64,000 bases of DNA from a bacterium (lineage in GTDB: Bacteria > Elusimicrobiota > Elusimicrobia > UBA1565 > UBA9628), in NCBI GenBank assembly GCA_021846045.1, contig JAJZCM010000001.1:54457-118456 (forward strand). The letters are read 5' to 3'. This document shows, one piece after another, positions 3,935 through 58,448 of this stretch. The translations under genes and the position numbers were made by a program. Each line of letters begins with the position of its first letter. Position 1 is the stretch's first letter. The notes beneath the pieces are model-generated. The model did not search any database and was not told the origin of the DNA. It worked only from the letters and a program-made list of their open reading frames with translations.

Positions 3935-4219
3935 ATGAAAAGGGGATTGGCGCTCTTGTTGATTTTGGGTTTTTTTGGATGCGCGGAATTGGGTTTTAAA
4001 GCGCCCCTTCAAGATTCCGCTCTCAGGGGCTCGATTATGTCCGCCTTGAGACGGCAAAAAGGCCTCGACCTATCCCATGTTGATGTGGATGTCGACGCGG
4101 GCTCTGTCGTCATCAGCGGAATGGTGGATTCCGTCCAGCAGGAAAAGCTGCTTGAGGACGTCGTCTACCATGTTCGCGGAGTTAAGGAGCCGGCGTTCAA
4201 CCTTGCCGTCAAAGAATAG
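3935..4219 (+). CDS. small lipoprotein with BON-like (OsmY-type) C-terminal domain
   Basis: MKRGLALLLILGFFGC is a lipobox-type signal. The C-terminal VDVDVDAGSVVISGMVDSVQQEKLLEDVVYHVRGVKE resembles a BON domain. An RBS-less internal ATG of the 3803 ORF was chosen. Confidence 0.5.
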   Translation: MKRGLALLLILGFFGCAELGFKAPLQDSALRGSIMSALRRQKGLDLSHVDVDVDAGSVVISGMVDSVQQEKLLEDVVYHVRGVKEPAFNLAVKE

Positions 4220-7251: not shown

Positions 7252-7343
7252 GTAACTACTCACGTCACCCCGACGAAAGTCGGGGTCCAGTTTCATGAAA
7301 CACCGGATTCCGGCTTTCGCCGGAATGACGAACCTGAGCGGTT
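7252..7343 (+). repeat. RPE/MITE-like double-hairpin dispersed repeat, copy 1
   Basis: Sequence GTAACTACTCACGTCACCCCGACGAAAGTCGGGGTCCAG...GGATTCCGGCTTTCGCCGGAATGACGAACCTGAGC. The same ~90-nt unit recurs at 31711, 39392, 45691, 45889, 54707 and 57294. Confidence 0.85.
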
Positions 7344-8842
7344 GATTTCCGATGAGAGGCCTGAACTGCATTTCTAAGCCGTGAGATTACCTCTGAGTTA
7401 ATATCTTCCAAATTCAGTTTCCAAGCCCAGTTTCCGGAGGTCGTTGCCGGAATGTTCATTCTCGCTTCCGATCCGAGGCTTAAAACGTCTTGCATCGGAA
7501 TAATGGCTGTGTTGGCCGGCGAATCCAAAAGGGCTTGGATGAGCTTCCAATGATTCTCAGGATCAGATTTTGAGCTATCGGCGTAGACAAGCGCCCGCTT
7601 GACTTCTTCTTGAGGGCCGTTTTGGAGCCAGCCGTTGAGCGTGTCGTTGTCATGCGTTCCGGTGTAGGCGACGGAGTTCGGCGCATAATTTTTAGGCAAA
7701 AATTTTTCTTCGCCGCCAAAGGAAAATTGAAGAATGTTCATGCCGGGAAGATGAAACTCATCTCGCAATCGGTAGACGTCGTCGCCGGCAACGCCTAGAT
7801 CTTCTGCGATGATTTGAAATTCCGGCATCTGGGGGAGAATCGAGGAAAAGAAATCCGATCCCGGACCCTGGACCCATTGGCCTTTGACGGCGGTTTTTTC
7901 TCCGGCCGGAATGCGCCAGTAGCGGCAAAAGCCGATAAAATGGTCCAGGCGCACAGCGCTAAAACGTTGAGCGGAAATTTTAAGGCGATTTTTCCACCAT
8001 TCATAGCCGGATTCTTTTAGGATATCCCAACGATAAAGGGGGTTTCCCCAGAGCTGCCCGGTTTTTGAAAAATAATCAGGGGGAACTCCGGAAACTGCGA
8101 TTGGAGAACCTTGTTTGTCCAAATCGAAAATATTTTGGTGCGCCCAGACGTCCACGCTGTCTTGGGAGACGAAGATTGGGATGTCTCCAATTAGAGATAT
8201 TCCTTTTTCCTCGCAGGCGCTTCTGAAGCGTTTCCACTGCCGATCGAAGAGAAACTGCTCGAATTGATAGTAAAACGAGGTTTCGCCTAAAAAATGAAGA
8301 AGGTCTCTTTCCCAAAAGCGGAAATTGCGGGCGCGAATTTGTTCCGGCCACTCGGCCCAGGGCTTTTGCTTAAAACGCTCTTTAAGCGAGGAAAACCATG
8401 CGTAATCGTTGATCCAGAAGGATTCCCGGTCCAAAAACGAGTGAAATTCAGCCCAGCTTCCGGGGGGATTTTCTTTTTGAAAACGGGAAGAAGCCAGTCG
8501 TAAAACCTTTTCTTTTTCCATCAATGCTTGAGCTGAGCTCAAGCCTCTGAATGCGGGAATTTCCGCGCGGTTCAGAAATCCTTCTTCCGCCGCCAGATCA
8601 AGATTGATAAAAGAAGGGTTTCCGGCAAAAGCGGAGACGCTGCTGTAGGGAGAATTTCCAGTGCCCGTGGGATTAATTGGGAGCATTTGCCAGTATTTTT
8701 GCCCGGTCTCGGATAAAAAATCGATGAAACGGCGCGCCGTGGGGCCCAAATCCCCAGTTCCGACTTCCCCGGGCAAAGAACTGATAGGGAACAATACCCC
8801 GCAGAAACGATTAGTAAACAGGCTCAAATTTTCTTTTCTCAT
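7265..8842 (-). CDS. malQ: 4-alpha-glucanotransferase (amylomaltase)
   Basis: GH77 motifs are present: LPINPTG..SPYSS, GDIPIFV and HDNDT. The last ~25 codons and the stop codon are supplied by the repeat element (…AQVRHSGESRNPVFHETGPRLSSG*). Start chosen at MRKENLSLF. Confidence 0.85.
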   Translation of the reverse strand: MRKENLSLFTNRFCGVLFPISSLPGEVGTGDLGPTARRFIDFLSETGQKYWQMLPINPTGTGNSPYSSVSAFAGNPSFINLDLAAEEGFLNRAEIPAFRGLSSAQALMEKEKVLRLASSRFQKENPPGSWAEFHSFLDRESFWINDYAWFSSLKERFKQKPWAEWPEQIRARNFRFWERDLLHFLGETSFYYQFEQFLFDRQWKRFRSACEEKGISLIGDIPIFVSQDSVDVWAHQNIFDLDKQGSPIAVSGVPPDYFSKTGQLWGNPLYRWDILKESGYEWWKNRLKISAQRFSAVRLDHFIGFCRYWRIPAGEKTAVKGQWVQGPGSDFFSSILPQMPEFQIIAEDLGVAGDDVYRLRDEFHLPGMNILQFSFGGEEKFLPKNYAPNSVAYTGTHDNDTLNGWLQNGPQEEVKRALVYADSSKSDPENHWKLIQALLDSPANTAIIPMQDVLSLGSEARMNIPATTSGNWAWKLNLEDINSEVISRLRNAVQASHRKSTAQVRHSGESRNPVFHETGPRLSSG

Positions 8843-9938
8843 AATTTGCCCGGACGATAGAGACCAGATCGTTGGTATTATCGCCCTTATCATCGAAACG
8901 AGTCATCCCGATAATTCCATCGTACTCGGTTTCCCTGAGGGTCGCGATCATTTTTTTGCGGTCAAACCCCGCTTTCTGAAAGGCCGCGAGAGATATTTTG
9001 GCCGCTTCATAGGCATAGATATCGTAGGTGCGTGGGGTGGTTTTAAATAAGGAGCGATATTGAGAGATAAAGGGATCGGCGCCGGGAAGGAAATCAACGG
9101 GAACCCCACTGATGACAAAATAGGCTCCGTTGGAAGCGGGGCCGGCGAGCTTAAATAAAGTGTCTTCCTTGGATGCTCCGCCTGAAAAAAAGGTTATACC
9201 CAGACGGTTATCACGAAGAGATTTGAGAATGTTTGCCGCTTCCGGGTAAAACCCACCGAAGAAAAGGCCCTGCGGCTTTGAAGCCTCAAGCGCGCTTATG
9301 AGCCCTGAAAGATTGGGCGGGTTGGGGGGAAGAGCGACAAATCCTAGAATTTTTCCACCTTCTTTTTTAAAATCTGAACCAAAGGCTTCTGAAAATTCCA
9401 TTCCGTAAGAGCTTTGATCGTCAACAATAAAAAACGAATGGATGCCGAGACGGGAATAAGCAAAATGAGCGGCGAATTTCGCCTGGGATAAATCAGTCGG
9501 CGGCATGCGGAAAATACTTTTTTTCCATTTCCAAGAGGGGCTTTTTTGCTGGGCGGTGAGAACGCTATTGGCGGCAGAGGGCGTGATCATGGGAATTAAG
9601 GATTCGGCGTAGACAGGAGCCGCGGCTAAGCAAGAATCCGAAGTAAAGTCTCCGATGACGGCAAAGACTTTTGGGTTTTCCGTTATTTGCCCAGCAGCCT
9701 TGACCGCTCCTTGGGGCGTTCCTTGATCGTCGTAAGCGCGGACAACGATATTCCAAGAATTTTCATCGGAATCATTGAACCCCGAAGCGGCTAATTTAAC
9801 GGCGCGGACGATGCCGCCGCCTTCGGCGCCGATAGGACCGGACAGCGGAACGGCAACGGCCAAAATGGCATTGGGTTTGGGGTTTGAGCAAGCGAGGATA
9901 ATCCCCGCGGCCAAAAGGAGCGGAAAAACTTTTCGCAT
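8811..9938 (-). CDS. periplasmic substrate-binding lipoprotein, LivK/branched-chain amino acid ABC-type (type I PBP)
   Basis: A lipoprotein signal (MRKVFPLLLAAGIILAC) is followed by a Leu/Ile/Val-binding-protein-like fold pattern. No permease or ATPase genes are adjacent. Confidence 0.65.
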   Translation of the reverse strand: MRKVFPLLLAAGIILACSNPKPNAILAVAVPLSGPIGAEGGGIVRAVKLAASGFNDSDENSWNIVVRAYDDQGTPQGAVKAAGQITENPKVFAVIGDFTSDSCLAAAPVYAESLIPMITPSAANSVLTAQQKSPSWKWKKSIFRMPPTDLSQAKFAAHFAYSRLGIHSFFIVDDQSSYGMEFSEAFGSDFKKEGGKILGFVALPPNPPNLSGLISALEASKPQGLFFGGFYPEAANILKSLRDNRLGITFFSGGASKEDTLFKLAGPASNGAYFVISGVPVDFLPGADPFISQYRSLFKTTPRTYDIYAYEAAKISLAAFQKAGFDRKKMIATLRETEYDGIIGMTRFDDKGDNTNDLVSIVRANYEKRKFEPVY

Positions 9939-13909: not shown

Positions 13910-15330
13910 GCTTGGGAATTCTAAAAGATATCGCCTGGCTCGGCGCCGGATTTGTTTTAGGAGCGGGCGGGTCCTTGTTTTTGAGGGAAACTTTTTATAA
14001 AGACGAATTGGATTCCCAGGGTTTAAAAGAAGAATTAACGGAAACTCAAGTCCGCCTTGACGCGAAATCCCGAGAAATTAAAACCCTTCAAGATACCGTA
14101 CGATCCGCCGCTTCTCCTACGGATTTGACGGCGGCGCTGGCGGGAATCGTTTCGATCGTGACTCGGCACATGGAAGTGGATTTGGTCGCCTTTTTACTCT
14201 TGGATGAAGCCTCCCAGGAATTGGTCACTCGGCCCGGGGCTTACGGCCTTGAGAAGGAGGAGCAGATTTACAAAATATCGCTGATGGATGAAAACGCTTC
14301 CTCGGTTCGGGTTTTTAAGACAGGGAAGCCTTTCGTCGCGGGAGACGCTCAAGCCGACCCCGGCGTCATCACGCATTACGCCAAATTATGGGATATTCGC
14401 TCTTTAATCGTCGTTCCGGTCAGCAAACAAGGGCATTCCTGGGGTGTGATGCGGGTTGGTAGCCGCAAGCCTTATGCGTTTACCCAAGAGCATGTGGATC
14501 TGATGGGAGCAATTGCCGAGGATGCGGCGATTATCATTGAGATGTCGGTTCTAAATCAGCAATTACTTTCGGATAGGGAACAATTAAGGGCCTTAAGCCG
14601 TATGAAAGATGAGTTCGTTTCAACCGTCAGCCATGAGTTTAAGACGCCGCTGACAACGCTGGCGGGTTTTTTGGGGCTCATGCTGGAAGGGGAAATCGGC
14701 CCCGTCAGCGAGGATCAAAGACGATTTATGGTGATGGCTAAAAACGCGGTAGAGAGGCTTTCGAACATGGTTTCTGATTTATTAGACATTTCCCGACTTG
14801 AATCGGACATGAAAATGGAGCTGAAGCGTTTTTCTCTAACCCCATCGCTCTCTTCTATTATTGAAGCTCACAACCTTGAAGCGACGGCGGCCAAAAAGGA
14901 AATTCATCTCGATTCTCCCAAGAATTTGCCGGAAGCCCTCGCCGACCCAAAATGGATTTCGGTCGTCGCTGAGAATTTGATATCGAATGCGCTGAAATTT
15001 ACCAAACCGGGCGGACGCATCAGCGTTTCCGTTTTTAATAAAGGAGATTGCATCGAGACGATTATTGAAGATGACGGCATCGGCCTTCCACAAGAGGCGC
15101 TCTCCCATATCTTTGAAAAATTTTACCGGGCTTCAAACGCGCGGGAATTGAATATCTCGGGGACCGGCCTTGGCCTTGCGATATCAAAAAAAATTATCGA
15201 TTTACACGGCGGACGTTTATGGCTTGAGTCTTCCTTGGGAAAAGGAACGAAAGCTCATTTCGTCATTTATTCTGTCAACCGTTATGGCGGCCCCGGCCAA
15301 AACAGAACGGAAACAATGCAGGAGGCTTAA
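13906..15330 (+). CDS. GAF-domain sensor histidine kinase
   Basis: One N-terminal TM helix, a GAF-like region, the HisKA motif VSHEFKTPLTTLAGF, and HATPase_c (G-box GTGLGLAISKKII). It starts with an ATGA overlap onto the upstream gene. Confidence 0.85.
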   Translation: MSLGILKDIAWLGAGFVLGAGGSLFLRETFYKDELDSQGLKEELTETQVRLDAKSREIKTLQDTVRSAASPTDLTAALAGIVSIVTRHMEVDLVAFLLLDEASQELVTRPGAYGLEKEEQIYKISLMDENASSVRVFKTGKPFVAGDAQADPGVITHYAKLWDIRSLIVVPVSKQGHSWGVMRVGSRKPYAFTQEHVDLMGAIAEDAAIIIEMSVLNQQLLSDREQLRALSRMKDEFVSTVSHEFKTPLTTLAGFLGLMLEGEIGPVSEDQRRFMVMAKNAVERLSNMVSDLLDISRLESDMKMELKRFSLTPSLSSIIEAHNLEATAAKKEIHLDSPKNLPEALADPKWISVVAENLISNALKFTKPGGRISVSVFNKGDCIETIIEDDGIGLPQEALSHIFEKFYRASNARELNISGTGLGLAISKKIIDLHGGRLWLESSLGKGTKAHFVIYSVNRYGGPGQNRTETMQEA

Positions 15331-15331
15331 T

Positions 15332-16882
15332 ATGTTAGCTCATGTCAGTTCTATGGGACTGCGCGGCATTGAAAGTTATCCCGTTTTGGTCGAACTTGAT
15401 TTATCCAACGGACTTCCGGGGTATACAACGGTCGGCCTGCCCGATGACGCGGTTCGGGAGTCGCGGGATAGAGTCATTTCGGCGGTTAGAAACTGCGGCT
15501 TTAATCTTCCGCAAAAGAGAATTACCGTTAATTTGGCTCCGGGACAATCGCGAAAGGAAGGTAGCCATTTTGATTTGCCTATAGCCTTGGCCCTCTTGAC
15601 GGCTTCAGGACAAATTGAGTCGGAGAGTTGGGAGGGAAAATACTGCTGCATCGGGGAATTGGCTTTAGATGGGACGATGCGTCCGGTTCGAGGCGCTCTA
15701 TCGATGGCCATGAGGGCGCGGCAGGAAGGGTTTAAAGCCATGATTGTTCCCAAGGCAAACGCCGCGGAGGCGAGAGCGGTCGGTATTGACGTAATTCCGG
15801 GCGCCACCTTAAGGGAAATCGTGGATTTTCTCAGCGCCCCTGAATTATCCCAAAGAGATTTTGCTTTTTCAGACCCCTTTGAGGATGTCTTTCCCGCGCA
15901 AAAAGAGGAGAGAAGTCTGGAAGACATGGCGGATGTCAAGGGACAGGTTTTGGCAAAAAGAGCAGCGGAGATTGCGGCCGCCGGCTTTCACAACTTGATT
16001 GTGATGGGGCCTCCGGGAATTGGAAAGTCAATGCTGGCCCGCCGCCTGCCCGGAATTTTGCCACCCATGAGCCGGGGAGAAATTTTAGAGGTGACGCGCA
16101 TTCATTCGGCAAGATCGAAAGAAGGTTCCGGCCTTGTCGCTCGGAGACCCTTTAGGGACCCGCATCACAGCGCCTCTTTGGTTTCCCTAGTGGGCGGCGG
16201 GCCGGGGGTTAAGCCTGGAGAAGTTTCCCTGGCGCATGGAGGAGTTCTCTTCCTAGATGAAGTCCTTGAATTCAACAGGACCGCCTTGGAATCTTTGCGT
16301 CAGCCTCTGTCGGATTTTAAAATTACGATCTCAAGGGCTAAGGACTGCGTGGAATATCCCGCGCGCTTCATTTTGGTCGCGGCGCTCAACCCTTGTCCCT
16401 GCGGGTTTAGGGGACATCCGACCAAACCTTGCATCTGCAGTCCCAAGGCCGTTTCAAGTTACCTTTCCCGAGTTTCAGGGCCTTTGCTTGACCGAATCGA
16501 TCTTCAGGTTGAAATGTCTCCCCTTGACTTTTCCGATTGGGCCGCTCAAACTAACAGGATGCCTGAATCTTCCGCTGAAATTAGAAAGCGGGTCGTTTGC
16601 GCCCGCCAAAAGCAGCAAGAACGGTTGGGCAGAGAAGACTTCGCGGCAAACGCCTACTTAACGCAAGGCGAAATCAAACGGCATTGCGTTCTTTCCTCCA
16701 GCGCCCTGGACGCTTTGAGGCAAGCCGCTCAGAAATTTGACCTATCGGCTCGGGGTCTGGACCGTGTTCTCAAGGTTTCTCGCACGATTGCGGATTTGGA
16801 GGACTCTGATTCCATTGAGATAAGACACATAGCCGAGGCCATGAATTACCGGGCTTTGGATAAAGAGAGGAATTCCTTATGA
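15332..16882 (+). CDS. comM: Mg-chelatase-like AAA+ ATPase ComM/YifB
   Basis: N-terminal Lon-like/ChlI domain (SMGLRGIESYPVLVELD), Walker A GPPGIGKSML and a C-terminal MgChelatase_C region. GGAGG RBS at 15321-15325. Confidence 0.85.
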   Translation: MLAHVSSMGLRGIESYPVLVELDLSNGLPGYTTVGLPDDAVRESRDRVISAVRNCGFNLPQKRITVNLAPGQSRKEGSHFDLPIALALLTASGQIESESWEGKYCCIGELALDGTMRPVRGALSMAMRARQEGFKAMIVPKANAAEARAVGIDVIPGATLREIVDFLSAPELSQRDFAFSDPFEDVFPAQKEERSLEDMADVKGQVLAKRAAEIAAAGFHNLIVMGPPGIGKSMLARRLPGILPPMSRGEILEVTRIHSARSKEGSGLVARRPFRDPHHSASLVSLVGGGPGVKPGEVSLAHGGVLFLDEVLEFNRTALESLRQPLSDFKITISRAKDCVEYPARFILVAALNPCPCGFRGHPTKPCICSPKAVSSYLSRVSGPLLDRIDLQVEMSPLDFSDWAAQTNRMPESSAEIRKRVVCARQKQQERLGREDFAANAYLTQGEIKRHCVLSSSALDALRQAAQKFDLSARGLDRVLKVSRTIADLEDSDSIEIRHIAEAMNYRALDKERNSL

Positions 16883-27330: not shown

Positions 27331-29901
27331 TTGATGCCGACCATGGTTAAAGATAAGATTGCCTCGCTTAAGAAATCTCTTGAGCTTCAGTCCTTTCTTC
27401 ATAAATCCATGATTTGGTGGCTTCCGCTTCTCTATTTTTTAATTTCTTCTCTTTTCTATTTACGGACATACGATTCCGCTCAGGTCAAGATTACCATCAT
27501 GCAAATGGGGGGATTGGCGCTTTTGACCCTGTGGGTCAGCCGCTTGATTGAATCGGGCGGCGCCGCGCTCAGCCGGGAAGACCTGGTTTGTCTGTCTCCG
27601 TTTTTGGCGTATCTTTTGGTCGGAATTCTTTCCTTCATCCATGCGCCTTACCGAATGGCGAGCGTGGACTTTTTCATCCGGCATTTTTTCTTTATGTCGG
27701 TGGCTCTTATCGTTATCTATGAATTCGACGCCGAAGCGTCAGAGCGTTTGACAAAAATACTCATTTGGACGGCCTGGGTGGCGGTCGGATACGGGTTTCT
27801 CCAGGTCATTGATACCCATTTCTTTCCTCCCGGAGTGGGGCACGGCATCGATCCTTTCATCTGGCGCATGGCCTTTGGCGATCGAGTGTTCTCAACTTAC
27901 GGTAATCCCAACTTTTTCGCGGACTTTTTAGTCATCATCTTCCCCATCTTGTTGTTGCGCTATCTCAAAGGGCGCCGGATGTCCTTGATTCCCTTGATGT
28001 TGATGCTCTTGGTTGATCTCTATTTTACGGGGACCAAGGGGGCTTGGGTGGGTTTTGGAATCGTGATTGTCGTTTTTTGCGTGATCGCCTTCATCTATTT
28101 TAAGGAAATTATTCAGCCGTATCGAAAGTATTTGATTGGGGCGGCAATTGCGGTCTTGCTACCGTTCTCATATATATTCATGAAGGATTTCACGACGCGC
28201 CTGGCTTCGGTTAATTTCCGCTTGTTTACCTGGGAAGCCACTTGGGAAATGATCATGACCCAGCCCTTTATCGGGACCGGCGTGGGGAGTTTTCCTCCGG
28301 TTTATCCTGCTTTTAGGCGCCCGCCGATTTTTCATATCGAGGCCAAGCATAATACGGAAACCGATCACGCGGAAGACGAGTATTTGGAAGAGTTGTTCGA
28401 CAATGGAATTCTGGGCTTTGGCGTATTTTTGTGGTTGATCATCAGCACCTTGGTCGTCGGTTTTAAGTCTCTAGGGCAGATGCTGGATGTTTCCCACTCA
28501 TCAAAAGATAAAAAAATTCCGCCGAGGGTCTTTGACCTTTTGGGCTACATGATCGCGTTTATCGGCATGTTGTGTCATAATTTTTTCGACGTGAGTCTCC
28601 GTTTTGTCTCTTCGGGGGTTTATTTGGGCCTTTTGCCTGGGATGATCGTAAATCTCTCCCGAGGAAAGGGCCTTTATGAATCGCATACTCTTCAGGAAAA
28701 AAATGTCAAACCGGGCGAAGCGGCTCCGGAGTCGTTTTGGAAAACCCTGTCTGAGTTCTTAATCTGGCCGGTTCGTTTGGCTGCCTGGGGCGGGCTTTTC
28801 TATATCGCCTTCTTGATTCTGACTCAATTTAACGCCTTGCAGGGCCCTATTGATCGCCTAACGATGGGAGGGGAAATTCTTCAGTGGTGGCTTTCTTGGG
28901 GAACCTTATTGGCTTGCGTTCTTGGATTGGGATTTGTTTTTTTTCGACTGATCCTTCTGTCGGAGAATCCCTTTGTCGGGGCGCTCATCTTGTCGGCCCT
29001 GCCGATTCTTTATACTTTTTGGGGTTATTTTAAAGCCGATATCCATCACAATATCGCCATCTATTTTTCAAAGGAACATGATTGGGATAAGGCCTTGTCC
29101 GAATATCAAACGGTGCATCGCCTCGATCCTAATTTTGCGATGGCGCTCTACTTCATGGGGAATGTCTTCAACGACCGGTTTAATATGCAAAAAACTTATA
29201 ATCCTTCCTGGGGAGACAAGAACAACGTTTCGCGGGATGATTATGAGCGCGCCTTGGACGCCTATAATGAAGTTCGCAAGCTTTCCCCCAATTACGTTCA
29301 GATGCATTATCAGGTGGGCGTCCTTCATCTTAAGCGCGCCCAGTGGGCGATAGACCACGGTCATCCCGAAGACGCGTTGACGTATTTTAACCGCGCGCTG
29401 ACCCGCTTTAAGCTTTATAAGACCATTGATCCCGTCTTTGGGCCCAATTTCCTGAGAATAGGCCAGGTCTATATGATGGAGCATCGCTATGCGGACGCGG
29501 TCAAGGCCTACCAAGAATATATTTTGGCGGATAAATGCGCGGTTGATCCTTCCTTGATCGTCAAGCCTTTCCTTAGAAAAACCATTCTCAGTTATCAAAC
29601 CTATGTTCATGTCCCCGGAATTCCCTATCCGGTTCATCGTCACCCCGCTCCCGACAAGCATGCGGAAGGGGCCGAGGTTTACACCAGTTTGGGGAACGCT
29701 TATTTTATGATGAATAATTTTGAGGCGGCCAAGGCCGCTTACCAGGAAGCTCTTCAATATGATCCAAATTTTGCCCAAGCTCAACATAACATAGCCGCCG
29801 TCTCGCTGCGGCTTAAAAATCCAAAAGGGAAGCCCTTGCTCCAAAATCCTTCAGAAGCTTCTCCACATTCTTCCGGCTATGAGATCATTCAGAAAAAGTA
29901 G
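27331..29901 (+). CDS. Wzy_C (O-antigen ligase / PglL-type oligosaccharyltransferase-like) polytopic membrane protein with C-terminal TPR domain
   Basis: More than 10 TM helices and the Wzy_C-like loop PFIGTGVGSFPPVYPAFR...HIEAKHNTETDHAEDEYLEELFDNGILG. The C-terminal ~350 aa are TPR-like. Confidence 0.65.
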   Translation: MMPTMVKDKIASLKKSLELQSFLHKSMIWWLPLLYFLISSLFYLRTYDSAQVKITIMQMGGLALLTLWVSRLIESGGAALSREDLVCLSPFLAYLLVGILSFIHAPYRMASVDFFIRHFFFMSVALIVIYEFDAEASERLTKILIWTAWVAVGYGFLQVIDTHFFPPGVGHGIDPFIWRMAFGDRVFSTYGNPNFFADFLVIIFPILLLRYLKGRRMSLIPLMLMLLVDLYFTGTKGAWVGFGIVIVVFCVIAFIYFKEIIQPYRKYLIGAAIAVLLPFSYIFMKDFTTRLASVNFRLFTWEATWEMIMTQPFIGTGVGSFPPVYPAFRRPPIFHIEAKHNTETDHAEDEYLEELFDNGILGFGVFLWLIISTLVVGFKSLGQMLDVSHSSKDKKIPPRVFDLLGYMIAFIGMLCHNFFDVSLRFVSSGVYLGLLPGMIVNLSRGKGLYESHTLQEKNVKPGEAAPESFWKTLSEFLIWPVRLAAWGGLFYIAFLILTQFNALQGPIDRLTMGGEILQWWLSWGTLLACVLGLGFVFFRLILLSENPFVGALILSALPILYTFWGYFKADIHHNIAIYFSKEHDWDKALSEYQTVHRLDPNFAMALYFMGNVFNDRFNMQKTYNPSWGDKNNVSRDDYERALDAYNEVRKLSPNYVQMHYQVGVLHLKRAQWAIDHGHPEDALTYFNRALTRFKLYKTIDPVFGPNFLRIGQVYMMEHRYADAVKAYQEYILADKCAVDPSLIVKPFLRKTILSYQTYVHVPGIPYPVHRHPAPDKHAEGAEVYTSLGNAYFMMNNFEAAKAAYQEALQYDPNFAQAQHNIAAVSLRLKNPKGKPLLQNPSEASPHSSGYEIIQKK

Positions 29902-31708
29902 CCGCAAATTTCTTCCCGCTCTTTTAATCGCCTTTGCGGCTTCTTTGACCGCCGCTGTCAGGGCGGCAACTTTTCCCGCGACCGACGAGGCCGTTTTTTC
30001 TCCGATGCAAGAGGAAATGGCGCGTTCGCTCAAAAATTTGAAAGAGGGAGATTTTGGGCCGCCTTATTTTATCGCTTACCGCATGGTCGTTGGCCGGGGA
30101 ATGGATATCTCGGCGTCTTTTGGCGGAGTTGTATCCGAAAACAAATATCATTCCCAGACTCTTTTCTCCGAAGTCAGATATGGGAATAAAAAAATGGATA
30201 ACACCTCGATTCAATATCAGGGGCTGAGCGCAGAGGCGCCGCTCAGCGGAAAAGAATTACGCGAGAATTTATGGATATTGACGGATAAGGCCTATAAGGA
30301 CGCGGTTGCCGGATATCTGGAAAAAAAAGCGAAACGGGTTACGGAATTTAGAGCGGAAAATCTGCCGGATTTTACCGATGAACCCTCGACGCGTTCCTAT
30401 GAGCCTCAAGAGGCTCCGAGTTTTGACGATGCCGCAGCCCGTTCCCTCGTTAAAAATTTAAGCCGGCTTTTGCGTTCCTATCCTTATATTTATCATGGGA
30501 CTGTGATTTTGCATTTAGGATGGTCGCGCCGGTACCTTTTGACCTCCGAGGGGACCAAGGTCTCGGGGCCGTATGAGAATTTGCCCAATTACCTCAGTAT
30601 TGACGTCAATTCTCGAGCGAAAGACGGGCTTAAGGTCAGCAATTACCGCGAGTGGGTTTTTAAAGATATGAAAAGTCTTCCGCCTCGGGAGAAACTAGCA
30701 AGAGCCGTGAAGCGCTTGGCGCTTGAGCTTAAAGAGTTGAGAGACGCCCCCTTAGAGACACCCGTCGCCGCTCCGACAATTTTGGATCCGGAAATGACGG
30801 GGGTCTTGTTTCATGAAGCGTTGGGACACAAGTTAGAGGGGGAGCGGCAAAGGGATCCCTTGCAAGGGCAAATATTTAAAGGCATGGTCGGCAAAAAAAT
30901 TATTCCAAGTTTCTTGTCAGTTATTGACGACCCAACGATGAGTTTTTTTAAAGGCGTTTCGCTTCACGGTCATTACCGGATTGATTCCGAAGGCGTCCCA
31001 TCTGAAAGAGTCGTTCTGGTTCGCAATGGTATTTTGGAAAATTTCCTGATGTCGAGATGGCCGCTTAAGGATTTTTCCCATTCAAACGGGCATGGGCGGG
31101 CTTCTTCAAGACTTCGTCCCTTGGGGCGCATGGCGAACTTGATGATTGAGGCTAAAAATCCTCTAAGTCCCGCCGCGCTTAAAAATAAATTACTGAAGCT
31201 GCTTCGCTCGGAACACAAGCCTTACGGCTTTAGGATTGTGGGCGCTTACGGCGGAGACAATCCAAGCGAGAGAACCCAGGCTCAGACGCTGCAGCTTCGG
31301 CCGCGTTTAGTTTACCGAATTTCGGCCAAGGACGGAAAAGAGACCTTGGTAAGAGGCGTTAAAATCGTCGTGACCCCCTTGGTCGTTTTAAACCGCATTT
31401 TGGCGGCTTCAAACGACGAGGCCCTCTCAAATCCTTACTTTTGCGGGGCGGAATCAGGATGGGCGCCGGTCGATCAAATCGCTCCGAGCGTTTTAGTTTC
31501 GGAGCTTGAGTTTGAGCGTCTGCCTGAAAATCGCTTAAAACCGCCGATTTTGCCCTCTCCGTTGACACATTTGCTAAAGCACGGAGAGGACGCTTGGCCT
31601 CCAGCCTTGATCGCGCCCTCTCCGTTGACACATTTGCTAAAGCACGGAGAGGACGCTTGGCCTCCAGCCTTGATCGCGCCTTCTCCGTTGACGCATGGAA
31701 AAAATTGA
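29879..31708 (+). CDS. secreted TldD-like metallopeptidase (HExxGH present)
   Basis: Signal peptide, then a TldD/PmbA fold pattern with HEALGHKLEGE. The C-terminus is extended by a 63-nt tandem duplication. Confidence 0.7.
   Translation: MRSFRKSSRKFLPALLIAFAASLTAAVRAATFPATDEAVFSPMQEEMARSLKNLKEGDFGPPYFIAYRMVVGRGMDISASFGGVVSENKYHSQTLFSEVRYGNKKMDNTSIQYQGLSAEAPLSGKELRENLWILTDKAYKDAVAGYLEKKAKRVTEFRAENLPDFTDEPSTRSYEPQEAPSFDDAAARSLVKNLSRLLRSYPYIYHGTVILHLGWSRRYLLTSEGTKVSGPYENLPNYLSIDVNSRAKDGLKVSNYREWVFKDMKSLPPREKLARAVKRLALELKELRDAPLETPVAAPTILDPEMTGVLFHEALGHKLEGERQRDPLQGQIFKGMVGKKIIPSFLSVIDDPTMSFFKGVSLHGHYRIDSEGVPSERVVLVRNGILENFLMSRWPLKDFSHSNGHGRASSRLRPLGRMANLMIEAKNPLSPAALKNKLLKLLRSEHKPYGFRIVGAYGGDNPSERTQAQTLQLRPRLVYRISAKDGKETLVRGVKIVVTPLVVLNRILAASNDEALSNPYFCGAESGWAPVDQIAPSVLVSELEFERLPENRLKPPILPSPLTHLLKHGEDAWPPALIAPSPLTHLLKHGEDAWPPALIAPSPLTHGKN
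31555..31698. repeat. 63-bp tandem duplication (2.3 copies), each unit holding an 8-bp-stem hairpin CTCTCCGT..ACGGAGAG
   Basis: Units 31555-31617 and 31618-31680 are identical, followed by a partial third unit. Encodes PSPLTHLLKHGEDAWPPALIA x2 at the C-terminus of the TldD-like protein. Confidence 0.85.
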
Positions 31709-31710
31709 CA

Positions 31711-31772
31711 GCTCCGGAATCCAGAAGATCGCTGCTCTGGACCCCGACTTTCATCGGGGTGACGTGAGTTGT
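31711..31772 (-). repeat. degenerate/partial copy of the double-hairpin repeat family
   Basis: CCCCGACTTTCATCGGGGTGACGTGAGTTGT (reverse orientation, stem with a C-to-T change) plus a CCGGAATCCAG remnant. Confidence 0.6.
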
Positions 31773-31773
31773 T

Positions 31774-32712
31774 ATGGAAAAAATTGACATGGAACAAGTC
31801 TCTTCTGTAACTTTGGAGGAATTGCCCTGCAATTTGTGCGGTTCCAGAGAGAGCGCCGTTTTATACCAGCGGCCTTATCTGACTCCGCATGACCAGAAAG
31901 TCGGAGCTTTTGCCGCGACGACCGATGAATTTCTCAATTACGGACGCATTGTTTCTTGCTTAAAATGCGGTTTGTGTTATACCAATCCCCGTCCCACGGC
32001 CGAGGCCATTCTTTCCGGCTATGGAAATTACGTGGATGAAAGCTATCTTTTGGAAAGCTCAAGCCGTTCAATTAACGCCCATTTGAGCCTTAATACCATT
32101 CGGCGGTTCACTTCAACGGGCAAGCTCCTTGAAGTCGGTTCTTCCGTCGGTTATTTTCTCAACGCGGCCCGAACCGATTTTGAAGTGACGGGCCTGGAGC
32201 CTTCCCGTTGGGCCGCCGAAGAGGCGCGGAGAAGATTTAAAGTCGAATGTTATCCCGAATCGCTCGAAAACCCAAGCAGCATCCAGGGAAGAAGTTTTGA
32301 TGTGGTCGCCATGTCGGATGTCGTTGAGCATCTTCTGGATCCGAAATCGGCGGTTCTCTCTTGTCGAAATTTTTTAAAACCTGGGGGGATTCTCTACCTT
32401 CTGACGCCCGATATCGGAAGCCTTTCGGCCAAGTTGATGCGCGGCTATTGGTGGGGGCTTCGTCCCGCCCATATTTATTATTTTTCAAGACAAACGATGA
32501 CGCAAATGCTCATGGGAAACGGGTTTGAAATATTGACCATTAAATCCTTCGGGCGAATTTTCTCCTATTCCTATTGGCTGAGCCGGTTGAAGAACTACCC
32601 AAAATCAGTTTTCCTTACGGTTGGCGGGGTAATCAAAGCCCTTGGCCTTGAAAATAAGCTGGTCTATATTGATACACGGGATTCAATGGAAATATGCGCG
32701 AGAAAAAGGTAA
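31774..32712 (+). CDS. class I SAM-dependent methyltransferase with N-terminal C4 zinc ribbon
   Basis: CNLCGS...CLKCGLC, then LEVGSSVGYF (motif I) and VVAMSDVVEHLLDP. Confidence 0.75.
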   Translation: MEKIDMEQVSSVTLEELPCNLCGSRESAVLYQRPYLTPHDQKVGAFAATTDEFLNYGRIVSCLKCGLCYTNPRPTAEAILSGYGNYVDESYLLESSSRSINAHLSLNTIRRFTSTGKLLEVGSSVGYFLNAARTDFEVTGLEPSRWAAEEARRRFKVECYPESLENPSSIQGRSFDVVAMSDVVEHLLDPKSAVLSCRNFLKPGGILYLLTPDIGSLSAKLMRGYWWGLRPAHIYYFSRQTMTQMLMGNGFEILTIKSFGRIFSYSYWLSRLKNYPKSVFLTVGGVIKALGLENKLVYIDTRDSMEICARKR

Positions 32713-38784: not shown

Positions 38785-38872
38785 AAGCGAATTATAGTAA
38801 AATGGAAATCCCTTTATGCTGCTACGAGAACGATTCCCAAGTCCGAGAGAACGCAAGAACAGGGCCGTTTTC

Positions 38873-39487
38873 ATGGACAGAGACGGTGTGATTATTAAAG
38901 AAGTAAATTACCTCTCGCGCCTTGAGGATATGAAAATTATCTCCGGAGTTGCGGATTCGATCGCGAAACTGAGAAAAGCGGGCTTTAAGATGATAGTTAT
39001 CAGCAATCAGTCGGCCGTCGCTCGCGGACGCCTGAGCCTTTTTAAACTTCATAAAATTACGCGCGTTTTACTCCAAATGATTCGGGAAAAAAATTCCAAG
39101 GCTTGCATTGACGCCGTTTACTATTGTCCGCATCATCCTGATTTCGGCAAACCCTGCTCTTGCCGGAAACCCGGGATTGGGCTTCTCCTTAAAGCGCAAA
39201 AAAAATTCAACATTGATTTGAAATCCTCCTATTTTGTCGGAGACTCAAGCGCCGATATCCTAACGGCTCGGCGGGCAGGATGCGTTCCTCTGCTGGTGAA
39301 AACGGGGAAAGGTGGAAAAGACGGACTCTACAAGGCAAAGCCGAAAAAAATATTTAAAAACCTTTCCGAGGCTTCCCGCTGGATTTTAACTGCTCAGGTT
39401 CGTCATTCCGGCGAAAGCCGGAATCCAGTTGGAAACCTGGACCCCGACTTTCGTCGGGGTGACGTGAGTAGTTGCGCTGGATTTTAA
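38873..39487 (+). CDS. gmhB: D-glycero-D-manno-heptose 1,7-bisphosphate phosphatase (HAD-IIIA)
   Basis: FMDRDGVI (DxD), ISNQS, YYCPHHPDFGKPCSCRKP (Zn-binding Cys cluster), FVGDSSAD. The last ~28 codons and the stop codon come from the repeat element (AQVRHSGESRNP...). Confidence 0.8.
   Translation: MDRDGVIIKEVNYLSRLEDMKIISGVADSIAKLRKAGFKMIVISNQSAVARGRLSLFKLHKITRVLLQMIREKNSKACIDAVYYCPHHPDFGKPCSCRKPGIGLLLKAQKKFNIDLKSSYFVGDSSADILTARRAGCVPLLVKTGKGGKDGLYKAKPKKIFKNLSEASRWILTAQVRHSGESRNPVGNLDPDFRRGDVSSCAGF
39392..39475 (-). repeat. double-hairpin dispersed repeat copy (reverse orientation)
   Basis: GTTCGTCATTCCGGCGAAAGCCGGAATCC...TGGACCCCGACTTTCGTCGGGGTGACGTGAGTAGTTGC. Confidence 0.85.
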
Positions 39488-45690: not shown

Positions 45691-45776
45691 TCGTCACCCC
45701 GACGAAAGTCGGGGTCCAGGCCCACGCGAAAGTCTGGATTGCGGCTTTCGCCGCAATGACGGGTGAGTTTGCCGAA
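45691..45776 (+). repeat. variant copy of the double-hairpin repeat; stem 2 carries compensatory changes (TTGCGGC-TTTC-GCCGCAA)
   Basis: GTCACCCCGACGAAAGTCGGGGTCCAGG...TGGATTGCGGCTTTCGCCGCAATGACGGGTGAG. Confidence 0.8.
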
Positions 45777-45849: not shown

Positions 45850-47670
45850 ATGCCTGTCTTTAATCTTAAAGTATTTAATAAAAAGTCGGTAACTACTCAC
45901 GTCACCCCGACGAAAGTCGGGGTCCAGAGCAGCAATTTTCTGGATTCCGGCTTTCGCCGGAATGACGAACCTGGGCAGTTACAAAAGTCGTTTTGTATTG
46001 TAGTTGTTTTCCTTATTGCCTGGGGGTTGCGTGTTCTGGGCGTTCGATGGGGGCTTCCCAATATTTTTAACGGCGATGAGCCGCATTTTCTTAATCTCGC
46101 GGTTTCCTTTGGGCGCGGCTCTTTAAAGCCCTATGCTTTTAAATATCCGACTCTTTGGCCGTATTTTTTGTTTGTGTGTTATGGATTTTACTTTCTCTTT
46201 TGGTCTGGACTCGGGCTCTTGCATGGGATTACGGCTTTTGCCGGACTTTACGCTTGGCATCCGACGGGATTTTATCTCATCGCCCGCTTGGCGGCCGGTC
46301 TTCTTTCCATGGCCGCCGTTTTTGTCCTTTATCAAACGGGGAAAGAAGTAGAGGAGTTTTCCTGGGCATGGGTTTTTGCCGCTTTCGCTCCGCTTCTTAT
46401 TTATTCGGCTCACGAGGCGAAAGCCGACAGCCTGATGTTTTTCTTAATTTGTCTAGGCTGGCATTCGGCGGTGAAATTCTTTAAATCAGGGATGAGGAAA
46501 GATCATTTTTTTTCCGCCTTCTTTTTCGGGCTTGCGTTTTCAAGCCAGTTTACCGCTCTTCCGGCTTTAAGCGCGCTACTGGCTTTGGACTTTATTTCTC
46601 CAAAAAATACGCCTATAATCTGGGCCTTGGAGTCCGTTGGGATTTTTTCTCTGGCGTTTGTCTTGGGTTCTCCCTACGCAGTTTTTGATTTTCATAATTT
46701 CTGGTTCTGGATCCATATGCACAATCCCGAGGCGATGAACTCTCTTCGCTTTTGGACGAGACTAAGCGTGGCCAAGCGCCTCGGGCTCAATTTGCTGGGC
46801 TTTGAAGGATTTAATTGGGGGGCGGGGATTTTGGCTCTTTGGGGGCTTATTTCGTTTTTCTATCTTGATTTTAAGATGGCTTTGTTTCTTTTGTTTCCGG
46901 TTGCGCTTTCTTTCCTTGTCTTGGTTAATAATCCCGATGGAGGAGTTCCAAGATACTTGACTTCTGTTTTCCCGGCGCTTGATTTTATGGCCTCAGCGGG
47001 AATATTTTTCTTGTTAAAGGGAAAAAATCGGGCTTGGAAAACGATCATGGGCGGGCTAATCGCATCTTTTATTTTTTTCCCAGCTATTCTCAATGCTTGG
47101 AAGCGGGATAGGTTCATGAGACTTCCGGATACTCGAATGGAGGCGGAAAATTGGATATCAAAAAACATTCCCCAGGGGTCGGTTATTTTGGCTGATGAGC
47201 CCGATACCGAACCGAGGCTTTTAATGAATAAAGAAGAAGTGACGGCTTTGGCCGAGCGTACGAAACAGAATGGATCGCCCCGAAGTCGTCTTTATTTTGC
47301 CATGGCCCAAACTCATCCTGGGGGGGGGTATTGGGTTTACCGCATCAAGCGCTCTTCTTGGGATTTAGACATTTTCTTTACGGGGGAGGCGGATCTCTCG
47401 CAGAAAGATTCTCCCATGCTGAATATTTCCAAAGGGGTTGAGAGCGCCCGAGAGGCGGGAGTTCAATACGTCATCACTTCAAGTCAAGGCGTCAATCTAA
47501 AAAGAGCCATTGAGTTGCGAAATTTTTTTGATCAGCTGGGGTCAAAGGCTATTTTGCTTAAAGAATTTGATCCGGTCGCCGGGAAAACCGCCGGCCCGGT
47601 TCTCAAGGTATACCGGTTACCTGAGGCCCCAAATGGGGTGCCATTGCGGAATGAGCCGCGCCTCTTTTAA
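45850..47670 (+). CDS. GT-C membrane glycosyltransferase (ArnT/PMT-like)
   Basis: WGLPNIFNGDEPHF N-terminal loop and more than 10 TM helices. The ATG at 45850 reads through the repeat element in frame ([13 protein letters not shown]...); the true start may lie downstream of the element. Confidence 0.65.
   Translation: MPVFNLKVFNKKSVTTHVTPTKVGVQSSNFLDSGFRRNDEPGQLQKSFCIVVVFLIAWGLRVLGVRWGLPNIFNGDEPHFLNLAVSFGRGSLKPYAFKYPTLWPYFLFVCYGFYFLFWSGLGLLHGITAFAGLYAWHPTGFYLIARLAAGLLSMAAVFVLYQTGKEVEEFSWAWVFAAFAPLLIYSAHEAKADSLMFFLICLGWHSAVKFFKSGMRKDHFFSAFFFGLAFSSQFTALPALSALLALDFISPKNTPIIWALESVGIFSLAFVLGSPYAVFDFHNFWFWIHMHNPEAMNSLRFWTRLSVAKRLGLNLLGFEGFNWGAGILALWGLISFFYLDFKMALFLLFPVALSFLVLVNNPDGGVPRYLTSVFPALDFMASAGIFFLLKGKNRAWKTIMGGLIASFIFFPAILNAWKRDRFMRLPDTRMEAENWISKNIPQGSVILADEPDTEPRLLMNKEEVTALAERTKQNGSPRSRLYFAMAQTHPGGGYWVYRIKRSSWDLDIFFTGEADLSQKDSPMLNISKGVESAREAGVQYVITSSQGVNLKRAIELRNFFDQLGSKAILLKEFDPVAGKTAGPVLKVYRLPEAPNGVPLRNEPRLF
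45889..45982 (+). repeat. double-hairpin dispersed repeat copy
   Basis: GTAACTACTCACGTCACCCCGACGAAAGTCGGGGTCCAGAGCAGCAATTTTCTGGATTCCGGCTTTCGCCGGAATGACGAACCTGGGCAGTTAC. Confidence 0.85.
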
Positions 47671-54696: not shown

Positions 54697-54706
54697 GATT
54701 TTTGTT

Positions 54707-54798
54707 AACCACTCACGTCACCCCGACGAAAGTCGGGGTCCAGAGCAACAATTTTCTGGATTCCGGCTTTCGCCGGAATGACGAACCTGAGCAGTTAT
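54707..54798 (+). repeat. double-hairpin dispersed repeat copy in a divergent promoter region
   Basis: ACCACTCACGTCACCCCGACGAAAGTCGGGGTCCAGAGCAACAATTTTCTGGATTCCGGCTTTCGCCGGAATGACGAACCTGAGCAGTTATG. Confidence 0.85.
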
Positions 54799-57045: not shown

Positions 57046-57107
57046 TTTTGGGCGGAGCTGGAGAAAAACTCCGGCTCCGCTTTCCGTTTAATTCGAGAAT
57101 TTGCCCA

Positions 57108-58448
57108 ATGGAAAAAAAATCCGCCGAAGAAGCCGCTTTGGCCGGGCTTGAGGAGATTAAAAAAGAATATTACTCCCGCTTGGACTCTATTGATTTGAGT
57201 TTTTCGAGTCTCAAGGAAAATAAGTCTTCCCGCGATTACTTCTCGGATATCTTGACGGAGGAACCTCCAAGTTTATTGGAGATTCCTCCGGTCGTAACTA
57301 CTCACGTCACCCCGACGAAAGTCGGGGTCCAGAGCAACAATTTTCTGGATTCCGGCTTTCGGCCGCTTTCCAACGAACTTGGAAGCGGCGCTTCCTCCCC
57401 AATGCTCGGTCGCCGGAATGACGAACCTGAGCAGTTACCGCCGGTTAAAGAAATAATCCCGCCAAAACCTAAAGTCAATTTTTTCCCCGAATTTACGGAT
57501 GAGCCGGTTAGCGCCGCGGGTGAAAATAAGAATGAGGAAACCCAGTCTTCATTCATTATGAATGCGCCGGTGGAGAAGGAAACGCCTTTAGCCCAGGCGG
57601 ACGCGATTGCCACGCGCTTGGAAAATCTCCCCGTCTTGGGGCGCTCTTTCTCATTTTACAGTTTGCTTGTCTCTGGGGCGCTTCTTGTTGGCGCTATCTC
57701 TTGGGTGGGCTGGAATGCGTGGTCATCCTCATGGAAATCTTCTCTTCCTTTTGGCGAGCCGGTTGGCCTTGCCGCTGTTGGGGACAATCTGGCGTCTTTG
57801 GATCCCGCTGATAATCTTATTTATACCCTCAAAGGCTCTTCAGGAAAACCGCTAGGAAAATATCCTTTCGTTTGCGATCATGCTTCAGGGTTTGCCGGCT
57901 TTCAAAACGAGTTTTGGTGTTCAGAAGCTGACAAAGGCGATGTTCGGCGTTATTTCTTGGTCAATGGAAATGAGTATGAACTTCAGAGGGTTTATAAGAC
58001 TTTTGGAACCAAAATTGGAGCGCTCTATTCGGATGGAAATTATTTATGGGGCGCGGATGCGACTAGCGGGAAAATTTTTCAGTATTTAATTGTTAAGGCC
58101 CTGACGGGGATTCTTTTAACGCCCATTGACCGTTTTACCCTTCCCGATATTTCCCCGGCAGGACTTTATGCGTCTAATGGAATTTTATGGGTTTTAGACG
58201 CCAAAAGCAGGAGAATCAAGCGCTTTAAAATCTCGGTTTCAAAAGCGGAGCCCATTGATTCTTATGATCTAAACCAAAAGATAAAAGCGCTTGGCGCTCT
58301 TGCGGGGCTGTCCGTTAATGGGGAAAGAGTTTATATTCTAACCCGCCATCCCTCCAGAATTTTCAGCTTCGATCTTAAAAATTTGCCTCATCGCCGGTCG
58401 CCGATACATTTCCCAAGGGCGCCCGCGACGCTCGGCCTTCGGCCTTGA
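57108..58448 (+). CDS. membrane-anchored protein with C-terminal beta-propeller-like (NHL/SMP-30-like) domain; carries an in-frame repeat-element insertion
   Basis: Disordered N-terminus, one TM helix (FSFYSLLVSGALLVGAISWVGW), and C-terminal repeated strand motifs (LYASNGILWVLD, VNGERVYILT). The element at 57294-57439 is translated in the sense orientation. Confidence 0.5.
   Translation: MEKKSAEEAALAGLEEIKKEYYSRLDSIDLSFSSLKENKSSRDYFSDILTEEPPSLLEIPPVVTTHVTPTKVGVQSNNFLDSGFRPLSNELGSGASSPMLGRRNDEPEQLPPVKEIIPPKPKVNFFPEFTDEPVSAAGENKNEETQSSFIMNAPVEKETPLAQADAIATRLENLPVLGRSFSFYSLLVSGALLVGAISWVGWNAWSSSWKSSLPFGEPVGLAAVGDNLASLDPADNLIYTLKGSSGKPLGKYPFVCDHASGFAGFQNEFWCSEADKGDVRRYFLVNGNEYELQRVYKTFGTKIGALYSDGNYLWGADATSGKIFQYLIVKALTGILLTPIDRFTLPDISPAGLYASNGILWVLDAKSRRIKRFKISVSKAEPIDSYDLNQKIKALGALAGLSVNGERVYILTRHPSRIFSFDLKNLPHRRSPIHFPRAPATLGLRP
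57294..57439 (+). repeat. double-hairpin repeat copy with a nested 51-nt palindromic insertion inside stem-loop 2, within a CDS
   Basis: ...GGATTCCGGCTTTCG[GCCGCTTTCCAACGAACTTGGAAGCGGCG...CTCGGT]CGCCGGAATGACGAACCTGAGCAGTTAC. The insertion is itself an inverted repeat (GCCGCTTTCCAA / TTGGAAGCGGC). Confidence 0.85.

Follow-up and report, generated by a model that had tools for sequence, protein, structure and literature searches.

An in-frame, nested mini-repeat in a membrane protein gene of an uncultivated Elusimicrobiota lineage

Here, we describe a 145-nt palindromic repeat that lies in frame within a predicted membrane protein gene of an uncultivated bacterium of the phylum Elusimicrobiota, in a stretch of 64,000 nucleotides taken from contig JAJZCM010000001.1 (assembly GCA_021846045.1, positions 54,457 to 118,456 of the forward strand) and referred to below as the window. 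The repeat is a composite, in which a 94-nt core bounded by terminal inverted repeats (TIRs) of the form GTAACT...AGTTAC carries a separate 51-nt module within one of its hairpins. It belongs to a family with seven copies dispersed through the window and more in other assemblies, which resembles MITEs, the miniature transposable elements with inverted repeats. We think it very probable that the copy in the gene at 57108..58448 is a non-autonomous MITE, which inserted in its long, composite form, in frame and harmlessly, in the linker of a single-pass membrane protein.

The limits of this copy (Table 1) were set by an empty-site comparison for its sister at 45889-45982, described below. Self-comparison of the window matched 57294-57361 and 57410-57437 to six further sites; the copies at 45889 and ~54705 come closest, at 98.5% identity across 67-68 nt and 100% across 28 nt, and when these are aligned the surplus of the host-gene copy is exactly 51 nt, situated between GGCTTTCG and CCGGAATGAC. 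The TIRs GTAACTACTCACG and CCTGAGCAGTTAC pair in the predicted fold, and the element, in keeping with its small size (94 or 145 nt), holds no transposase gene, its open frame encoding only a hydrophilic peptide of 30-47 amino acids. The sequences that flank the copy agree at seven positions of ten when read in a 10-nt register (P = 0.0035). Together with an 8-bp target duplication, the 145-nt element adds 153 nt, or 51 codons, and because the copy also sits in the sole orientation and phase that is free of stops, the open reading frame (ORF) stays intact. This phase, frame 2 of the plus strand, is the only stop-free frame of six in the short and the long form alike; the remaining frames give strings such as WIPAFAGMT and VIPAKAGIQ, with stops that lie for the most part at the ends of the element or close to them. 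The host protein presumably carries 51 extra hydrophilic residues as a result. A sequence-only reading of this DNA had proposed a sense-oriented, in-frame copy at 57294-57439, translated in the frame also used at the start of the ORF at 45850, with a second stem-loop split by a 51-nt insertion; the ORF, its translation, self-comparison, alignment and fold all bear this out, with the extent refined to 57294-57438 and the insertion placed at 57362-57412, in the loop of hairpin 2.

That the short, 94-nt form is mobile is demonstrated by a pair of filled and empty sites. A homology search found a relative of the protein encoded by the 45850 ORF that is 92% identical and exactly 34 amino acids shorter, reading MPAFNLKVFHKKSFCIVVVF where the window protein reads MPVFNLKVFNKKS, then the additional segment VTTH...PGQLQKS, then FCIVVVF. 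At the DNA level, the empty site in GCA_021829385.1 (L051 1622-1700) has a single AAAAGTCG, while the filled site in the window has AAAAGTCG, the 94 nt from GTAACT to AGTTAC, and AAAAGTCG once more, a gain of 102 nt or 34 codons. The short form thus moves with the duplication of an 8-bp target site (target-site duplication, TSD), and repeats of 8-10 bp can be read directly on the flanks of further copies.

The core has TIRs of 12-13 nt and three internal hairpins. Folded as single-stranded DNA, the short form (-25.2 kcal/mol, z = -6.9) has a closing stem, built from the TIRs and an adjoining CGTCA/TGACG pair, that encloses the three hairpins, the second of which reads ATTCCGGC-TTTC-GCCGGAAT; the long form (-36.5 kcal/mol, z = -5.9) has the same structure with an extra hairpin in the hairpin-2 loop. 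The paired share of cells across eight close copies is 90.5%, compared with 24-46% in slid controls, and in the wider family direct reading shows stems that vary with compensation (TT/AA, CC/GG, CA/TG, CT/AG, TA/TA, TC/GA and TG/CA). At the gathering score the window gives no Rfam match, the matches seen under permissive settings all falling far under threshold.

The 51-nt module, GCCGCTTTCCAACGAACTTGGAAGCGGCGCTTCCTCCCCAATGCTCGGTCG, opens with an imperfect palindrome of 28 nt, GCCGCTTTCCAA/TTGGAAGCGGC, whose arms lie at 57362-57373 and 57379-57389, and closes with a 23-nt tail (57390-57412); shuffles of the window lead us to expect zero chance matches to either part. It is thus a 5' hairpin plus tail, with no terminal inverted repeats or visible target duplication, and its left flanks mostly end in YG. 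With up to three mismatches allowed, the window holds no copy beyond this one. In other assemblies it stands alone at unrelated intergenic sites (L015, L010, L020 and L023), adjoins the end of an element (L021), sits, in mosaic variants (L011, L002 and L004), with CTG on one side and hairpin 2 on the other, and occupies the loop of a second hairpin of CCCCGGC type (L019). A solo module is also read in frame, as 17 codons (GRSPTNLEAALPRLDSV), within a complete thiolase gene (L022; VFSW01331962.1, 4-1290, minus strand), in a reading frame that differs from that in the host gene, and alignment of this thiolase to PDB 1ulq places a gap of ~15 residues inside the 17-aa stretch. These occurrences show the segment to be an independent repeat unit and not the simple local duplication that the sequence-only reading had named as an objection to itself; its view of the insertion as an imperfect palindrome holds for the first 28 nt, and its element within an element is real, although the nesting probably did not take place in the host gene. 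A match to the module in Sulfuritalea (L013) was discarded as a chance match, lying in GC-rich coding DNA with no similarity in the tail.

Six composites could be aligned, that in the host gene and those in L002, L016, L018, L012 and L014, representing five assemblies, and all have identical junctions, TT(T/C)CG being followed by GCCGC...GGTCG and this by CCGGAATGACG. They are found in a gene of the MFS family in GCA_027401925.1 (L002; protein P0009; 98% identity), in an amylase-like gene of GCA_027406795.1 (L016; P0012) and at two loci of the Elusimicrobia metagenome-assembled genome clean561 (L012/L014). A further one, at an unrelated site in GCA_021805925.1 (L018), is a complete long form whose termini are intact and which has repeats on both flanks. 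Because composites with identical junctions recur in four other assemblies, one of them with intact termini and flanking repeats, nesting most likely preceded arrival in the host gene, the 145-nt composite coming as one piece and presumably transposing into the site as a unit. In a two-step alternative, the short form would have entered the gene first and the module would later have entered its hairpin-2 loop in place, the frame being kept since 51 is a multiple of three. The independent mobility of the module, evident from its solo copies (L015, L020, L022 and L023), suits this alternative, as do its positions before hairpin 2 (L011, L002) and in the CCCCGGC-type hairpin loop (L019), and a loop-specific target preference would yield identical junctions repeatedly. 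We nevertheless find it quite improbable, as identity to the copies of other assemblies is 95-98% over the whole composite, beyond the junctions, and the L018 copy, which lies at an unrelated site, complete at both termini and flanked by repeats of its own, is what would be expected of a composite that propagates as a unit.

The host sequence itself, 57108..58448, is on comparative evidence one real gene and not two. Its frame is open from end to end, an identical gene is called in GCA_027401875.1, and homologues of its protein are found at 46-65% identity with 96-99% coverage. Seven orthologues lie in conserved synteny, their loci having in common genes for 442-aa and 285-aa coiled-coil proteins, which the host gene follows, with a response regulator and histidine kinase in convergent orientation beyond it, and each encodes the N-terminal 50 amino acids, the transmembrane (TM) helix and the C-terminal domain within a single ORF. 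Over the first 40 codons, the window gene differs from orthologues at 12-15 third positions, against 2-9 differences at positions 1 and 2. It could be argued that this is not one functional gene at all, the N-terminal part being a leftover upstream of a later start, or the arrangement an assembly artefact, as ATG codons are present downstream of the element (M98 and M152) and repeats can mislead assemblers. This was rejected, and is in our estimation extremely improbable: the N-terminal 50 amino acids are fused to the remainder in all orthologues, the substitutions are of coding type in a frame that is open throughout, and at least nine contigs, independent assemblies from several samples, have the identical, insert-bearing arrangement, so that it is not an artefact of assembly. 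A strain variant from other samples, 99.6% identical, also retains the insert intact.

The protein begins with a conserved helix (residues 1-35), followed by a disordered, variable linker (~36-182), a TM helix (183-207) and a C-terminal domain of the YWTD/NHL-like beta-propeller type. The motif MEKKSAEE..LDSIDLSF, the TM helix and the strongly conserved C-terminal domain are common to all orthologues, and the intervening segment differs in both sequence and length, the linker having 148 residues in the window protein compared with 194-254 in the others. In an AlphaFold (AF2) model, residues 26-181 have pLDDT below 50 and no secondary structure, residues 183-207 form a helix and the beta-rich domain is modelled at pLDDT 65-87; Foldseek returns YWTD/NHL propellers as the top structural matches of this domain (E ~1e-5), and Pfam gives a sub-threshold NHL match only. 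The insert thus falls in the disordered linker. These results agree with the earlier description of the host as a membrane beta-propeller protein, and of the ~48-aa disordered insert then proposed the disorder stands, the length being corrected to 51 residues.

The linker of this protein family (57108-57650 and orthologues) also has repeated short motifs of the form (K/R)(D/N)(Y/F)F(P/S/A)(D/E)(F/I), which are fewest in the window protein. The host protein ends in ~18 residues (58395-58448), RRSPIHFPRAPATLGLRP, that are unlike the conserved tail of its orthologues (..LNGAALPQNGANAR), and the gene has no overlap with the convergent response-regulator gene, in contrast to the orthologues. Between the stop of the upstream gene (57045) and the host-gene start, a GC-rich inverted repeat followed by a T-rich stretch (57053-57090; GGCGGAGCTGGAG-AAAAA-CTCCGGCTCCGC-TTTCCGTTT) resembles an intrinsic terminator.

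With just one stop-free frame among six, survival within genes should be limited to insertions that use this frame in regions tolerant of extra residues. The internal copies found in genes, namely those of the host gene, the GT39-like ORF, the MFS protein P0009, the amylase-like P0012, a caspase-domain protein in L002 and P0005, all read in the open frame, and those besides the host-gene copy all lie outside Pfam domains, as such a survival filter predicts. In the limited DNA sampled, at least four proteins have in-frame internal copies, whether long, short or mosaic, a fifth has the solo module in frame and two more ORFs have C-terminal tails derived from the element. The copy in the caspase-domain protein (L002 15180-15303, gene 14680..16110) is a mosaic of hairpin, module and hairpin, open and in frame upstream of the Peptidase_C14 domain. 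In P0005, the host-gene orthologue in GCA_021836825.1 (L005 ~4095-4200), the same linker contains, at a different site, a diverged element, THVTPASGKPEF...DSGNSRNDEPEQL, which is an independent insertion into that tolerant region. Tolerance of the host protein and selection for an open frame had been posed as alternatives in the sequence-only reading; both have a part, although not as alternatives, one explanation sufficing in which an element with a single stop-free frame survives in tolerant regions. Directly after the long-form copy of P0012, an extra hairpin-1 unit (L016 6384-6406) is read in a different frame, and element fragments are therefore tolerable in more than one frame. The candidate carrier P0013 proved to be an unrelated repeat protein.

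A stronger claim would be that the 51 residues have been co-opted, serving as a useful linker or interaction segment that selection on the protein retains. Two strain variants keep the insert intact, and segments derived from the element recur, as N-terminal linker sequence in several envelope or membrane proteins and also as C-terminal tails; recurrence in linkers is, however, just what a tolerance filter predicts. The DNA is moreover near-identical to intergenic copies, which leaves no time for selection at the protein level, the insert is absent from orthologues, and an exhaustive search for the long-form peptide found, besides fragments, only three genuine proteins. Co-option is, in our judgement, very unlikely.

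The series of events that we favour is one in which the 94-nt core is a TIR-bounded MITE that has two unlike hairpins, a REPIN-like pair, on either side of a central stem and that duplicates 8 bp of its target, and of which a subfamily would have come to bear a separate 51-nt hairpin-plus-tail unit in the hairpin-2 loop. The 145-nt composite would then have transposed whole into a gene that encodes a single-pass membrane protein, probably mobilised by a transposase acting in trans, and landed in the long, disordered and fast-evolving linker that joins the conserved N-terminal helix to the TM helix. There it would persist because it is harmless, and probably neutral, with selection removing insertions in other frames or in structured regions.

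Several points weigh against this account. For the host-gene copy no empty site was found, the nearest insert-free orthologue being just 54% identical, and a metagenome scan with the reconstructed site gave no match. This copy has imperfect flanking repeats (6/8) in spite of an identity of ~99% between the element itself and its sisters, and translation of the insert is inferred. Covariation does not attain significance among the eight close copies, the observed score being reached by 59 of 500 shuffles, and the test was not used as evidence. Lastly, the 476 kb examined contain no pair of matching termini at the spacing of an insertion sequence, nor was an autonomous element with such termini seen there, and the neighbours of the mosaic copies in L002 are an HTH_Tnp_1 fragment and a protein without a Pfam domain, neither a clear partner transposase. 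The element has each MITE property that could be tested, the autonomous partner with the same termini being the one component not found in those 476 kb.

Table 1. Positions of the host gene, the parts of its composite element and the remaining family members in the window
Feature	Position	Strand	Remarks
Host coding sequence	57108..58448	+	446 aa; from ORF/translation, orthologue alignment, synteny, codon-position bias, AF2 model, Foldseek
Long-form (composite) MITE copy, 145 nt (94-nt core + 51-nt module)	57294..57438	+	in frame, residues ~63-111; self-BLAST, alignments
Left TSD copy, CTCCGGTC	57286..57293	.	6/8 match to 57439-57446, direct reading
Right TSD copy, CGCCGGTT	57439..57446	.	the two TSD copies together encode duplicated PPV...PPV
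Left TIR, GTAACTACTCACG	57294..57306	+	
Right TIR, CCTGAGCAGTTAC	57426..57438	+	
Hairpin 1, CCCCGAC-GAAA-GTCGGGG	57310..57327	+	fold; conserved in all copies
Central stem-loop, CCAG...CTGG, variable spacer	57329..57348	+	fold; spacer differs in sequence and length among copies
Hairpin 2, ATTCCGGC ... GCCGGAAT, loop split by module	57349..57419	+	alignment to short copies; fold
Nested 51-nt module, GCCGCTTTCCAACGAACTTGGAAGCGGCGCTTCCTCCCCAATGCTCGGTCG	57362..57412	+	in hairpin-2 loop; boundary ambiguous by 3-nt TCG repeat
Sister short form, 94 nt	45889..45982	+	in frame after codon 13 of GT39-like membrane protein ORF 45850..47670; TSD AAAAGTCG
Short form, intergenic	54705..54798	+	perfect flanking direct repeats TGATTTTTGT
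Short form	7252..7345	+	its minus strand gives last ~25 codons and stop of GH77 4-alpha-glucanotransferase ORF 7265..8893 (-)
Short form, 90 nt, shorter spacer	39386..39475	-	gives last ~33 codons of HAD/GmhB-like phosphatase ORF 38816..39487 (+)
Copy with 23-nt internal deletion	31705..31775	-	at start codon of ORF 31774..32712; flanking repeat duplicates ATGGAAAAAA
Divergent/partial copy, intergenic	45692..45761	+	hairpin 1 and compensated hairpin-2 variant GATTGCGGC...GCCGCAATGAC

Three of the remaining window copies lie at the ends of ORFs. The tail that the element gives to the GH77 ORF, TAQVRHSGESRNP...LSSG, lies beyond the end of the Pfam domain, and the shorter spacer of the copy at the end of the phosphatase ORF shifts the frame part-way along the element. 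Where the deleted copy lies at a start codon, ORF 31774..32712 keeps an intact start because the flanking repeat duplicates the ATGGAAAAAA start region. Immediately upstream of that copy, the 3' end of ORF 29879..31708 (31600-31708) encodes a tandem peptide repeat, PSPLTHLLKHGEDAWPPALIA, with two full copies and the beginning of a third.

Small palindromic repeats with some of these properties are known from several groups of bacteria. Rickettsia palindromic elements (RPEs) are short palindromic mobile repeats found in frame in unrelated protein-coding genes, to which they add a peptide where folding permits (PMC10969869). The element described here is alike in being inserted in frame in several proteins and adding a peptide to each, but it comes from an Elusimicrobiota lineage and not from Rickettsia and has clear terminal inverted repeats, an 8-bp duplication and a nested second repeat; the likeness drawn here is one of behaviour. 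REP sequences form doublets, REPINs, that are mobilised by RAYT (Y1) transposases without target duplication. The present family shares with them a building block that is a GC-rich hairpin of 20-30 nt with conserved flanks (GTCA...TCCAG), occurring singly or as inverted doublets with compensated stems, and its module, too, is a hairpin with a tail that has neither terminal inverted repeats nor a visible target duplication. Unlike REPINs, the 94-nt element has terminal inverted repeats and an 8-bp duplication, and the canonical GTAG head is absent; no RAYT gene was seen in the loci examined, a genome-wide RAYT search not having been made.

Comparison with Neisseria is also instructive. Repeats of dRS3/NIME type in that genus, where dRS3 is ATTCCC(N8)GGGAAT, are targeted by the Nf1 integrase (PMC3898611). 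Hairpin 2 of the present element, ATTCCGGCTTTCGCCGGAAT, is ATTCCG(N8)CGGAAT, which departs from the dRS3 pattern at position 6 and its partner. NIMEs (Neisseria intergenic mosaic elements), made of dRS3 and RS units, are intergenic arrays and not discrete, TIR-bounded units with target duplications. A mosaic build is nonetheless common to both: in the variants of L002, L004, L011, L019 and L021, hairpins 1 and 2 are joined with the module and other units, in an order that differs among them. The hairpins themselves reach further afield: hairpin 2 with its flank is 93% identical over 32 nt to repeats of dRS3/NIME type in Neisseria gonorrhoeae (L049), both hairpin types occur as a doublet beside an IS110-family transposase on the Blastomonas plasmid NZ_CP020084 (L050), the hairpin unit also matches Azospirillum, and a 27-nt unit, GTCATTCCGGCGAAAGCCGGAATCCAG, is found exactly in 25 IMG/VR viral contigs (L024-L048) as single units or inverted doublets. 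The hairpin unit is, by these matches, not lineage-specific.

Among MITEs proper, QMITE2 of Coxiella burnetii is a small element with terminal inverted repeats, variable direct repeats of 7-11 nt and truncated, REP-like versions, which overlaps gene ends (PMC5896051). Compared by description only, it is larger (150-190 bp) than the element described here and differs in that its description includes neither a nested module nor frequent in-frame internal insertions. Intragenic ERIC and other small mobile sequences of enterobacteria are, in the account of Delihas (2007) as cited in PMC10969869, MITE-like, with an open frame and occasional in-frame gene fusions; in-frame fusion is the point of likeness, sequence and host being unrelated. 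No named family came up in literature searches made with the hairpin sequences or the peptide strings. The family is, then, RPE-like in behaviour and REPIN- or NIME-like in build, and is not a demonstrated member of any of these families.

A more far-reaching proposal is that of a two-tier system of mini-repeats, in which a TIR-bounded hairpin-doublet MITE serves as host to a 51-nt unit that makes no TSD and prefers the hairpin loops of the MITE, the two being, through their lengths and open frames, a regular source of in-frame peptides, even in a folded thiolase, with movement through single-strand loop targeting and with hairpins that belong to a widespread, unnamed superfamily. We regard this as rather unlikely as a whole. 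If it were true, a single-strand, loop-targeting mechanism would be at work that has not yet been described for elements so small, and the hairpin unit common to Proteobacteria and many viral contigs would represent a very widespread superfamily without a name.

In-frame fusions of MITEs to genes are already known from RPEs, intragenic ERIC sequences and QMITEs, and the locus reveals no new mechanism. Its value lies in a well-resolved example of nesting, a clean pair of filled and empty sites and several independent insertions into genes, all in a poorly studied phylum. For annotation, the element explains peptide strings that recur in predicted proteins, and it is a warning that ORFs may be lengthened or given a new end by its copies. 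As to protein evolution, it supplies natural insertions of 17-51 residues that linkers, tails and a loop of one enzyme have tolerated. Selfish DNA within protein genes, best known from Rickettsia, thus extends to an uncultivated lineage of the Elusimicrobiota, and does so at two nested levels.

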